Below are positions 12,676 through 16,229 of a stretch of 32,000 nt of DNA, in pieces. How positions within the stretch are numbered: position 1 is the stretch's first letter; each line of letters begins with the position of its first letter. The position numbers and the translations under genes are program-made. This stretch comes from Candidatus Jordarchaeales archaeon. Lineage in GTDB: Archaea > Asgardarchaeota > Jordiarchaeia > Jordiarchaeales > Freyrarchaeaceae. The notes under the pieces were generated by a model. It saw only the letters and a list, made by a program, of their open reading frames with translations, searched no databases and was not told where the DNA came from. The stretch covers positions 1 to 32,000 of the forward strand of contig JAWCFL010000017.1 in NCBI GenBank assembly GCA_038858525.1. Direction: 5' to 3'.

Positions 12676-12973
12676 TTAGACCACCTTCTTAGAAGGCCTG
12701 TTGCAAAATAAATATTCCACAATTATACTTATTTACTTTTTGGAAGAAAAGGAAATCACAATGAAAAACTGATAATTTACAATTGCTTAAAAAGAAATAT
12801 TCCTAATTCCATCTCTTTTTTGTTTAAGCATTCGAAGACGAAATAAAGTAAAAGCCTAAGCCTCTAGTAACTCCCACAAAGCATCCTAACAGATTCCTAA
12901 ACTAAATTCTCAACAAACTAAAACCCTCTCAAACAAACCATTTTGCGGTTTTTATAGAGCTTCTTTCGTAATG

Positions 12974-12981
12974 TTTAAAAG
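12974..12981 (+). promoter_or_regulatory. Putative TATA box of the tRNA-Cys / pscE / pscS unit
   Basis: TTTAAAAG ends 26 nt before the mature tRNA 5' end (13008), within an AT-rich intergenic region. Confidence 0.55.
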
Positions 12982-13007
12982 TTATTTTTTCATTTGAGTT
13001 GTTGAGA

Positions 13008-13169
13008 GCCGGGGTGGCCGAGAGCCTCCAGTCTGATTGAAATGAGGTGCCGGAAACGGTGAGTCCCCCTTCACGGGGCGCGAAGCAGCGGACTGCAGTT
13101 TTATGAGCAGTTATCCGCCATACCGGGGTTCAAAACCTTTAATAGGTGAAACTCCCTGCCCCGGCTCCA
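13008..13169 (+). tRNA. tRNA-Cys(GCA), CCA encoded, interrupted by four introns: 13023-13056 (15/16), 13064-13084 (23/24), 13099-13112 (37/38), 13135-13152 (59/60)
   Basis: Acceptor stem GCCGGGG/CCCCGGC, U73 and CCA. Anticodon stem GCGGA/TCCGC with loop CT-GCA-GA after splicing. T stem CGGGG/CCCTG with loop TTCAAAT after splicing. D arm GCC-GAGCGGTGA-GGC after splicing. Exons of 15+7+14+22+17 nt sum to 75 nt. tRNA identity and the last two introns are firm; the D-arm junctions are less certain. Confidence 0.9.
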
Positions 13170-13200
13170 CTTCTTCTCCAACAGTGTGAGATGGTGCGTT

Positions 13201-13818
13201 ATGCCTCTTTCCCTTTCTTTGGATGCTGCCAGAAAGCTTTCCTCAACTATAGAAGCTCTTTTAACTGCTTGGTCTCTTGTCCGTGCGTCAGCACCTCGCT
13301 TAATCCTAAAGGAAAAAGAAGAAAGAGATTTTGTCGAGAAACTGTTACTGGCGCATCGCGCTCTCTCTGAGCTTTTATCTCTTCTCGGGCTCGACAAGCA
13401 AGAAAACGAGCTTATCAGTGCTCTTTCAGAACTAAATCCTAATGAAACATTACTCCTCGTCGTTCCCCCCTCATTGATGAGGCGCCTTGTGGGAGTCGGT
13501 ATTCCACATGAAAGAGTAATATCAATTGGAGGACCATTAAGCGCTGAAGACGCCAAGGCGTTAAATCCCCACCTTCCCGAGGAAGCTATGAAAGGTGTTG
13601 AAGCACGTTTAAAGAATTTTTGGAGAGAGCTTGAAAGAAAAATTAAAGGAGCACGTACAGTTCTTTTCATCCTGGAGAAAGCTGGCAAAGTTGACGAACT
13701 TATAGCCAAGCGTGCCAGTATGCTTTCTGAAAAGTTTGGAGTCGATGTTAAAGTTGTCTACTTAACTAATCTTGATTCCTGCGTAGAAATTCTACCGCGT
13801 TTTTTCAGGAGGGAGTGA
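13201..13818 (+). CDS. pscE: SepCysE (DUF2100), scaffold linking SepRS and SepCysS
   Basis: IEALLTAWSLVRASAPRLILKEKEERDFVEKLLLAHRALSELL..LG and SIGGPLSAEDAKALNPHLPEEAMKG match my recollection of methanococcal SepCysE. It sits between tRNA-Cys and pscS. ATG 13201 follows a GGTG SD. Confidence 0.75.
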   Translation: MPLSLSLDAARKLSSTIEALLTAWSLVRASAPRLILKEKEERDFVEKLLLAHRALSELLSLLGLDKQENELISALSELNPNETLLLVVPPSLMRRLVGVGIPHERVISIGGPLSAEDAKALNPHLPEEAMKGVEARLKNFWRELERKIKGARTVLFILEKAGKVDELIAKRASMLSEKFGVDVKVVYLTNLDSCVEILPRFFRRE

Positions 13819-13821
13819 GAA

Positions 13822-15024
13822 GTGCCGCTTAGACCTGAACGCCTTTCGAAGTATCGCAACCTTACAAGGAGTACCGAGATTGAAGCGATAAATCTCAACC
13901 CAATTCAGAGTGGGGGACGTGCCGGAAACTACCCTGAAGTCGTCAAATCAGTACTGAACTTCATAGATGGATATAGCACGTGCGACTACTGCATTAAGGG
14001 TAGACTCGAGGAAATCGAGACGCCACCGCTATGTGACTTCCACGCTGACCTAGCAGAATTCATCGAAATGGATGAAGTCAGGCTTCTACCGGGATGCAGG
14101 CAGGCTCAGTTTGCTGCTTTTCACAGCCTAGCAAGCCCAGGAGACTACGTGGTCATAGATTCTCTAGCACATTACTCGACATATCTGGCTGCCGAGAGAG
14201 CTGGACTGAAAATAATTGAGGTGCCCAACAGTGGTTTCCCTTATTTTGAAGTGTCACCTGAGCTTTACGCCGAAAAAATAGAGGAAGCTAAACGCGTCAC
14301 TAAAAAAACACCTGCATTGGTTTTCCTTACTCACGTTGACTACTCCTACGGTAACCTTGCGGATGCCGAGGCCATTGCAAAGGTCTCCCACGAGTATGAC
14401 GTACCATTCATGTTAAACTGCGCGTACACTATTGGTAGAATGCCTGTATCCGGACGAAAATTGAAGGCTGACGTAGTAGTAGCCTCGCTCCATAAGTCTT
14501 TCGCGTCCCCTGCCCCCTCAGGAATACTTGCAGCTAATGGAGAGTACGCTGAGAAAATATTCAGAAAGTCAACGGTGAAGGGAGAGTGGAGCGGCAGAAC
14601 TTTTCCAAACAAGGAGGTAGAACTTTTAGGATGCACGTTGCCCGGCTGCGTCGTTGTTGGAGTGATGGCGGCATTCCCCTACGTTGCTGAAAGAGTAGAG
14701 CGATGGAGTGAAGAGGTCGAGAAAGCCCGTTACTTCTCAAGCCAGCTGACGAAGATCGAAGGCGTCATTCAGCTTGGGCAGACCCCCCATAACCATGACC
14801 TCCTCCACTTTGAAAGCTCCTCGTTCTTCGAGGTGGCTCGCGCTCACCCTAGAAAGGGTTTCTTCCTCTATGACGAACTAAAAGCTAGAGGAGTCGTGGG
14901 CGTCCAGCCAGGCCTATCGAGGTCCTGGAAACTTTCAACATACGGACAAAGCTGGGAAAATGTTAAAAAAGCGGCTCAAGCATTCCTTGAAATAGCTGAA
15001 AAATACAATATCCCCGTCTCTTAA
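13822..15024 (+). CDS. pscS: O-phosphoseryl-tRNA(Cys):Cys-tRNA synthase (SepCysS)
   Basis: INLNPIQSGG, DGYSTCDYC (CxxC), HYSTYLAAE, PLP lysine in SLHKS, VELLGCT, LYDELKARG..G..PG. Confidence 0.95.
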   Translation: MPLRPERLSKYRNLTRSTEIEAINLNPIQSGGRAGNYPEVVKSVLNFIDGYSTCDYCIKGRLEEIETPPLCDFHADLAEFIEMDEVRLLPGCRQAQFAAFHSLASPGDYVVIDSLAHYSTYLAAERAGLKIIEVPNSGFPYFEVSPELYAEKIEEAKRVTKKTPALVFLTHVDYSYGNLADAEAIAKVSHEYDVPFMLNCAYTIGRMPVSGRKLKADVVVASLHKSFASPAPSGILAANGEYAEKIFRKSTVKGEWSGRTFPNKEVELLGCTLPGCVVVGVMAAFPYVAERVERWSEEVEKARYFSSQLTKIEGVIQLGQTPHNHDLLHFESSSFFEVARAHPRKGFFLYDELKARGVVGVQPGLSRSWKLSTYGQSWENVKKAAQAFLEIAEKYNIPVS

Positions 15025-15443: not shown

Positions 15444-15572
15444 CTCCCCCTCTCTCCTATTTTTCCTTACGCTTTTCTAAGTTTTACCTCCAGCTAATGT
15501 ATTAATCTAATAATTTTTATACTTGTTTTCAGTGTTTCCTTTGCCTTCTTCATCTTTTAAGAGGTGTGCGCA

Positions 15573-16229
15573 TTGTCTATCCCAGCTAAGGATCAGCTCC
15601 TTAAGGAAGTAGAGCGTTGTATTGTCCTGCTCAAAGGCGGAGAGCTAGAAGAGCTTATTGGGGCGTGTTTGAAGAATGGCTTGCCAGCTCTCGAAATTCT
15701 AAGTGCTATGGCGAAGGGAATGGAAGAAGTGGGAAAGAAATACGAGGCACAAGAGTACTTTTTGAGCGAGCTAATTTTTAGTGGTGAGATCTTCAAGAAG
15801 GGAATGAAACTTCTTGAGCCATACTTGAAATGCGAGTCGAAAGAAGAAACGAGCTGCGTCGTAGTCGTTGGAACAGTTATGAACGACCTTCACGACATAG
15901 GGAAAAACATTTTCATAACTCTTCTAATGGCTGCAGGCTTTAAAGTTGTCGATTTAGGAGTAGACGTCCCCCCGGAAAAATTCGTTGAAGCAGTTAAAGA
16001 GAACAACGCAAAGATAGTTGGCATATCCGCCCTCCTAACAAGCACCGCTCCAGGGATACGAGACATCATTAAAATGTTAGAAAAAGAGGACTTAAGAGGA
16101 AAAGTAAAGGTAATTGTGGGCGGCGCAGCCCTAACACATGAGATGGCTAAGGAACTGGGAGCGGACGCTTACGCGGAAACGGCAGTTAGAGGCGTTGATA
16201 TATGTAAAAAATGGATGATGGAAATCTAA
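15573..16229 (+). CDS. Corrinoid (B12-binding) protein, MttC/MtbC-like
   Basis: B12 cap domain (GMEEVGKKYE..EYFLSELI) plus DLHDIGKN (DxHxxG), SALLT, VGGA and GADAY. TTG 15573 follows a GAGGTG SD (track start 15564). Confidence 0.92.
   Translation: MSIPAKDQLLKEVERCIVLLKGGELEELIGACLKNGLPALEILSAMAKGMEEVGKKYEAQEYFLSELIFSGEIFKKGMKLLEPYLKCESKEETSCVVVVGTVMNDLHDIGKNIFITLLMAAGFKVVDLGVDVPPEKFVEAVKENNAKIVGISALLTSTAPGIRDIIKMLEKEDLRGKVKVIVGGAALTHEMAKELGADAYAETAVRGVDICKKWMMEI

Follow-up and report, generated by a model that had tools for sequence, protein, structure and literature searches.

The window analyzed here is a stretch of 32,000 nucleotides from the Asgard archaeon Candidatus Jordarchaeales (assembly GCA_038858525.1, contig JAWCFL010000017.1, positions 1 to 32,000). 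Its forward strand carries a 162-nt locus at positions 13008-13169 that resolves into five exons of 15, 7, 14, 22 and 17 nt and four introns of 34, 21, 14 and 18 nt, with coordinates and letters checked on the sequence. Introns make up 87 of the 162 nucleotides, in keeping with a first-pass annotation in which over half of the gene had been judged intronic. Removal of the four inserts reproduces letter for letter the 75-nt product proposed in that annotation, and ARAGORN identifies the spliced sequence as a tRNA-Cys(GCA) with a normal cloverleaf. The spliced RNA has a 7-bp acceptor stem, a D-stem of 3 bp plus G13.A22, a 5-bp anticodon stem, a variable loop of 5 nt, a 5-bp T-stem, U73 and a CCA end that is encoded in the genome.

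Exon 1 (13008-13022) supplies tRNA positions 1-15, namely the 5' strand of the acceptor stem, U8, the 5' strand of the D-stem, A14 and G15, and its sequence shows no differences among four Jordarchaeum genomes and a sister genus. Exon 2 (13057-13063) is a micro-exon of 7 nt, CGGTGAG, that covers positions 16-23 with G18 and G19 of the D-loop and the start of the D-stem 3' strand. It reads YGGYGAG in all five orthologues and is contiguous with exon 1 in the sister genus. Exon 3 (13085-13098) provides positions 24-37, comprising the end of the D-stem, A26, the 5' strand of the anticodon stem and the residues C32, U33, G34, C35, A36 and G37. Positions 38-59 are contributed by exon 4 (13113-13134), which holds the 3' strand of the anticodon stem, the variable loop CAUAC, the 5' strand of the T-stem and the T-loop sequence UUCAAA. 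Exon 5 (13153-13169) completes the molecule with positions 60-76, including the 3' strands of the T-stem and acceptor stem, U73 and the CCA at 13167-13169.

Each of the four introns is flanked by a BHB motif, and the introns fall into two classes. Introns 3 and 4 are strict, with all four central pairs formed and flanking helices, and introns 1 and 2 are relaxed and lack an outer exon helix. Intron 3 (13099-13112, 14 nt) lies at the canonical position 37/38, where a CTGC/GCAG central helix (4/4 pairs) with bulges AGT and TTA is continued by an outer helix of 5 bp that is the anticodon stem itself. Intron 4 (13135-13152, 18 nt) lies at 59/60 and is of the strict hBHBh' type, with a TTCA/TGAA central helix (4/4), bulges AAA and ACT, an inner CCT/AGG stem of 3 bp and an outer helix of 5 bp formed by the T-stem; it is found in all five orthologues of the family and also in the Freyarchaeia orthologue. 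Intron 2 (13064-13084, 21 nt) interrupts position 23/24 and is of the HBh' type. Its GGTG/CGCG central helix forms three of four pairs in this genome and four of four in three orthologues, with bulges AGT and AAG and a 4-bp inner stem, CCCC/GGGG. This intron is likewise present in all five orthologues, and its helices are preserved despite base changes. These three motifs are as the first-pass annotation had described them. Intron 1 (13023-13056, 34 nt) is assigned to 15/16 as a relaxed HBh' type, with a GCCG/CGGA helix of three central pairs plus G.A, bulges AGA and AAC and an inner helix of 2 bp. Here the relaxed motif given at first pass stands, and the exact register, 15/16 or 16/17, is ambiguous.

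A putative promoter precedes the gene. A BRE/TATA-like element, cgtaatgTTTAAAA (12968-12980, forward strand), can be read some 28-34 nt upstream of where the mature tRNA begins, and a TTTAAAA box about 30 nt upstream recurs at a similar distance in all five orthologous loci. Similar elements, purine-rich tracts plus TTTAAA or TTAATA, lie upstream of most other tRNA loci in this genome. A scan for sigma-70 promoters and terminators was set aside because the host is an archaeon.

The unspliced locus is not detected by ARAGORN, with or without its intron mode, nor by the Rfam tRNA model, either at the gathering threshold or at E values up to 10. This outcome agrees with the expectation at first pass that standard scanners would miss the gene, and such silence on unspliced DNA is uninformative with regard to function. 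Because chance alone produces many relaxed BHB motifs, a point also made in the available text of a 2026 preprint (10.64898/2026.10.13.758758), we wrote a search independent of the first-pass model. This de novo C program assembles a T-arm, a GC-rich acceptor pair, a D-arm and an anticodon arm, and permits jumps of 10-150 nt where a BHB-like motif is possible. In the window, its top parse consists of these four introns at identical bases, with a score of 46.

A motif this permissive might let sets of deletions turn many GC-rich 160-nt stretches into cloverleaves, in which case the gene model would be a product of over-fitting. One strand of the 32-kb window holds 159,531 relaxed BHB-like candidates, about five lengths per position, and alternative parses of the tRNA-Cys locus itself score 40-43. 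We nevertheless regard over-fitting as extremely improbable. The best false parse in a null formed by the reversed genome (∼4.2 Mb, both strands) scores 37, compared with 46 at the tRNA-Cys locus; the parse recurs in independent genomes, and exons and introns differ in conservation, a contrast that played no part in the search; and two of the inserts are confirmed by the sister genus without recourse to any motif. Folding of the precursor gives a modest z of −2.26 relative to shuffled sequences, and the minimum-free-energy fold contains only some of the motif helices, that of intron 3 among them. Since three-base bulges are penalized by the energy model, we do not count the whole-precursor fold as evidence either way.

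Orthologous loci with four inserts at identical sites occur in three congeneric Candidatus Jordarchaeum genomes (G001, G002 and G003), as revealed by the alignment of related loci that the first-pass annotation had recommended. The concatenated exons are 97-99% identical among congeners and the four introns average 52-61%, yet base changes have left the central helix and inner stem of each intron intact. The sister genus carries only the 23/24 and 59/60 introns and lacks those at 15/16 and 37/38. Its D-arm runs uninterrupted across the 15/16 site (GCCGAG-TGGCGAG), so the 34-nt block is extra sequence and CGGTGAG is exonic, conclusions that do not require any motif. The spliced tRNA of the sister genus is also 75 nt, and its anticodon stem differs by compensatory changes. 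Removal of the inserts restores a cloverleaf tRNA-Cys in five orthologues, and the intron-less tRNA-Cys of another Asgard genome aligns with the spliced product. A scan of metagenomes for orthologues returned a single contig, of 82 kb, with a locus that matches the G003 one exactly and thus adds no variation. For G003, a three-intron parse outscores the four-intron parse in the de novo scheme. This alternative, which contains a 54-nt insert, was rejected on two grounds: the other genomes do not share it, and it would excise the micro-exon, a segment that the sister genus retains as exon.

The same comparisons bear on the boundaries of intron 1, which could instead span 13024-13055 (32 nt, position 16/17) within the same gene and with the other three introns unchanged. 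Such an intron would leave a mature tRNA of 77 nt whose D-loop measures 9 nt (AGAACGGUG), and the predicted junction would join GCCGAGA to ACGGTGAG rather than GCCGAG to CGGTGAG as in the 15/16 register. In the congener G002 the intron at 16/17 would be 31 nt long, and its motif there is perfect, combining a central helix of 4 bp (CCGA/TCGG), bulges of 3 nt and an inner stem of 8 bp. The de novo search prefers 16/17 in G002 and G001, and the D-loop intron of the Freyarchaeia orthologue lies there too. Conversely, in this genome, G001 and G003 the 16/17 register sets A14 opposite C (3/4 pairs) and forfeits one inner pair. Moreover, at the intron pair i2:[-7] G002 has A:T where the three other genomes have G:C, a change that is compensatory only under 15/16. 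The intron-free D-loop of the sister genus is 7 nt long and has the same form as the 15/16 product (AGUGGCG vs AGCGGUG), such that under 15/16 the mature tRNA need not gain any bases. On these grounds 15/16 is probably the true register of intron 1, and 16/17 is an unlikely one.

The Freyarchaeia orthologue also illustrates how such genes are named incorrectly. A locus at positions 1326639-1326821 of contig C1 in genome G006 appears in Supplementary Data 4 of PMC11291895 as tRNA-Ser(AGA) with 25.2 bits, and the coordinates match base for base. Judging from these coordinates and the single contig, G006 is presumably the published complete Freyarchaeia genome. In our de novo search the locus resolves as tRNA-Cys(GCA) with introns of 31, 15, 29 and 31 nt at 16/17, 32/33, 46/47 and 59/60. 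Its 77-nt spliced product is close to the tRNA-Cys described here and is called Cys by ARAGORN. The tabulation of this gene as Ser(AGA) supports a remark in the first-pass annotation that scanners would mis-call genes of this kind.

The locus appears to be the only tRNA-Cys gene of its genome, as the first-pass annotation had asked to be confirmed. When the mature tRNA-Cys is aligned, with splicing allowed, to the two strands of the assembly, this locus scores 108 and nothing else exceeds 35, and no second tRNA-Cys was found in the assembly, which is 92.7% complete in 63 contigs. Two other loci with GCA parses were rejected as tRNA-Cys. One, on the minus strand of contig C39 (980-1128, 0-based, on the reverse complement), is better read as tRNA-His(GTG), with a possible G-1, C73, the anticodon arm CAGGA-CUGUGGA-UCCUG and a long insert at 37/38; its middle parses ambiguously. 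The other, on the plus strand of contig C1 (109835-110026, 0-based), has A73 and a score at the level of the null; this 192-nt locus has an encoded CCA, and its middle parses ambiguously as well.

Directly downstream of the tRNA gene lie two protein-coding genes on the same strand. The first (13201-13818) encodes a SepCysE homologue (Pfam DUF2100, E = 4.9e-25). Its open reading frame is listed from a GTG at 13186, and the likelier start is the ATG at 13201, 31 nt past the tRNA. The DUF2100 protein matches M. jannaschii MJ1481 (PDB 3wkr, 5x6b and 5x6c) with an E value of 1.4e-5, and PDB 3wkr is SepCysE (PMC5424206). The second gene (13822-15024) encodes SepCysS, the O-phosphoseryl-tRNA:Cys-tRNA synthase, with 479.7 bits to the NCBIfam equivalog model TIGR02539 relative to a cut-off of 365. 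The tRNA-Cys, SepCysE and SepCysS genes are thus co-oriented (window positions 12974-15024), separated by 31 nt and 3 nt, and their order is kept in five genomes. No TATA-like box was seen in the 31-nt spacer between the tRNA and SepCysE genes. Further along the same strand, positions 15564-16229 encode a corrinoid protein with B12-binding and B12-binding_2 domains, of the kind found in methyltransferase systems.

SepRS is encoded on contig C11 (TIGR00470, 511.8 bits, above the cut-off). For CysRS, no match in the 92.7%-complete assembly exceeds the cut-off, the best model match reaching 36 bits compared with a cut-off of 340. The genome therefore encodes both SepRS and SepCysS, and within the assembled 92.7% CysRS appears to be absent or dispensable. 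The identity set of tRNA-Cys for the SepRS/SepCysS route comprises the GCA anticodon, G37 and U73 (PMC8762117). It is complete in the spliced tRNA-Cys, where the G37 and U73 pointed out at first pass are both found along with the anticodon.

A gene that is more than half insert might alternatively be a decayed tRNA-Cys pseudogene in which insertions have built up, with a working copy elsewhere, for instance in the unassembled part of the genome. An assembly that is 92.7% complete and divided among 63 contigs could have missed a second copy. Decay is nonetheless very unlikely for a locus whose exons are 98% conserved over four species when the inserts are only 52-61% conserved, and in which every insert of every species retains the splice motif. 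The promoter and the synteny with SepCysE and SepCysS are likewise conserved, the assembly is without any other tRNA-Cys-like locus, and most other recovered tRNA genes of this genome are interrupted in the same manner. We conclude that positions 13008-13169 very probably constitute a single functional tRNA-Cys(GCA) gene with four BHB introns that serves the SepRS/SepCysS route. This model of five exons and four introns, first proposed from the letters of the window, is backed by the sequence, by three congeneric orthologues, by the sister genus and by the presence of both the splicing and the SepRS/SepCysS machinery.

The splicing machinery includes two EndA paralogues that are 32% identical to each other. 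An alpha-type paralogue (contig C3, 81835-82089, minus strand) has the catalytic Tyr, His and Lys residues and a specificity loop with a conserved lysine. It aligns without gaps with A. pernix EndA through the loop region and retains the equivalent of Lys44 as well as the catalytic residues. The second paralogue (contig C43, 5978-6235, plus strand) is without the catalytic His and carries an acidic extension at its N terminus. The pair is consistent with an (alpha-beta)2 enzyme, and Asgard archaea have been described as possessing (alpha-beta)2 EndA with an L1 loop (PMC5829648). In the same study, the loop-bearing A. pernix enzyme was more efficient than loop-less enzymes at removing an HBh' intron from the D-loop. 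The genome also encodes RtcB (601 bits). By homology, then, the host possesses RtcB and an EndA whose predicted activity is suited to relaxed motifs.

From the observed anatomy, conservation and enzyme complement we infer a route by which this gene might be transcribed, cleaved, ligated and charged. Transcription from the BRE/TATA promoter about 30 nt upstream would yield a precursor of at least 162 nt containing four BHB introns at 15/16, 23/24, 37/38 and 59/60. A lysine in the "Crenarchaea-specific" loop of the alpha subunit may let the (alpha-beta)2 EndA accept the relaxed motifs, and the enzyme would cut after the second base of every 3-nt bulge. Because the four motifs do not overlap, no order of removal would be obligatory. 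Until they are excised, the two D-arm introns would keep the strands of the D-stem in other pairings. RtcB would then ligate the exons of 15, 7, 14, 22 and 17 nt into the 75-nt tRNA with its encoded CCA. SepRS is predicted to load the mature tRNA, recognized by GCA, G37 and U73, with phosphoserine, and SepCysS together with SepCysE, the products of the two genes directly downstream, would convert the phosphoseryl form to Cys-tRNA.

Most tRNA genes of this genome are multiply interrupted, and the nearest relatives of its SepCysS are labelled Candidatus Jordarchaeum or Jordarchaeia. The Rfam model detects just 5 tRNAs in this genome, and ARAGORN 5-11. The de novo program, applied to the whole genome in a census from which about a dozen tRNAs were not recovered, finds 34 loci at a score of at least 38, and 28 of the 34 contain two or more inserts. 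Six loci have one insert, four have two, 14 have three, eight have four, one has five and one, which is doubtful, has six. The five-intron gene is tRNA-Arg(GCG) (contig C4, 38169-38337), in which all five central helices are fully paired. Approximately seven other loci receive four-insert parses, namely Asp-GTC, Phe-GAA, Met-CAT, Trp-CCA, Ser-CGA, Tyr-GTA and Leu-CAG; how the variable region parses makes the final three doubtful. Insert counts are unreliable for class II tRNAs, whose long variable arm the program may read as an insert. An earlier version of the census that started from the tRNAs of a compact Asgard genome was dropped in favor of the de novo program because those tRNAs are intron-rich themselves and ARAGORN calls are unreliable there. 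The T-loop and 59/60 intron of tRNA-Cys are 81-88% similar over about 32 nt to two segments of the same genome, C4:36101-36131 and C3:63386-63417. The former lies within tRNA-Arg(CCG), which itself has a 59/60 intron, and the similarity hints that related introns may reside in different tRNA genes.

The first-pass annotation had supposed that four introns may exceed the reported maximum, and this claim does not hold. Three introns were the reported maximum per archaeal tRNA gene as of 2014 (PMC4033280), but Valentin-Alvarado et al. (2024, PMC11291895) found introns in 92-95% of the tRNA genes of Atabeyarchaeia and Freyarchaeia, the latter called Jordarchaeia by others. Their Supplementary Data 4 tabulates four-intron tRNAs for Freyarchaeia (Arg-TCT, Ile2-CAT and Leu-GAG) and for Atabeyarchaeia-2 (Trp-CCA and Lys-TTT). 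The available text of the October 2026 preprint (10.64898/2026.10.13.758758) gives 2.0-2.4 inserts per gene for Jordiarchaeaceae and Freyrarchaeaceae, with up to five in one gene, and states that tRNAscan-SE systematically loses D-arm inserts. The multi-intron tRNAs of Freyarchaeia/Jordarchaeia and Atabeyarchaeia resemble the tRNA-Cys described here in lineage (Jordarchaeia), in their short BHB inserts at non-canonical positions and in having D-arm inserts that annotators miss. The tRNA-Cys gene is not named in the available text of the preprint, and "Cys" does not occur in its main text; the table in PMC11291895 lists no tRNA-Cys for the Freyarchaeia genome. With four and five introns per tRNA already reported for the group, and a five-intron tRNA-Arg(GCG) in the same genome, the four-intron tRNA-Cys is typical of its genome and lineage, a good example rather than a record. 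The observation as such is confirmed, and its first-pass interpretation is partly supported, in that the gene model is upheld and the novelty is not.

Other systems share some of these features. The multi-intron tRNAs of Thermoproteales (Sugahara et al. 2008), as covered in the available text of PMC4033280, also have EndA/BHB introns at the D-loop, 37/38 and 59/60, along with relaxed HBh' motifs and an (alpha-beta)2 EndA with a specific loop. That text gives up to three introns per gene for these members of Thermoproteota, compared with four here in Asgardarchaeota. The highly disrupted nuclear tRNA genes of the red alga Cyanidioschyzon merolae (PMC3728597) likewise combine BHB-dependent ectopic introns in the D-arm, at 37/38 and in the T-loop of one gene, and ordered processing was demonstrated there by RT-PCR. 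In contrast to the present case, these are genes of a eukaryotic nucleus with at most three introns, and some are permuted as well. With regard to gene order, the SepCysS loci of Bathyarchaeota BA2 and of clade VII (Mukai et al. 2017, PMC5424206) place tRNA-Cys beside SepCysS, or beside a SepCysE-like adaptor plus SepCysS, as is observed here. The present locus differs from them in that SepRS is encoded elsewhere (contig C11), the adaptor is a DUF2100 homologue of SepCysE (MJ1481) and the tRNA contains four introns. Introns are not mentioned in PMC5424206.

Two further possibilities follow from the arrangement and distribution of these sequences, and we put them forward jointly and tentatively, since it is rather doubtful that both are correct. 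The tRNA-Cys might form the 5' leader of a single transcript with SepCysE and SepCysS, and the 15/16 and 37/38 introns might be genus-specific gains. If there is a single transcript, release of the tRNA by RNase P and Z and the four EndA/RtcB events would be coupled to production of the enzymes that convert Sep-tRNA-Cys to Cys-tRNA-Cys. If the two introns are genus-specific gains, they would represent a datable, recent insertion of introns into an essential single-copy tRNA gene. The sister genus, with two introns compared with four, offers a simple test case for intron gain.

The tRNA-Cys gene leaves the known picture unchanged and adds to it a clean case, supported by comparison, of the extent to which tRNA genes are fragmented in Asgard archaea. 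That gene finders lose or mis-name such genes bears on claims of missing tRNAs or odd anticodons in these lineages. The gene is probably essential, and we find in this single-copy tRNA a micro-exon of 7 nt and more intron than exon. As the only tRNA-Cys, it would make the entire supply of Cys-tRNA hinge on four endonuclease-ligase events.
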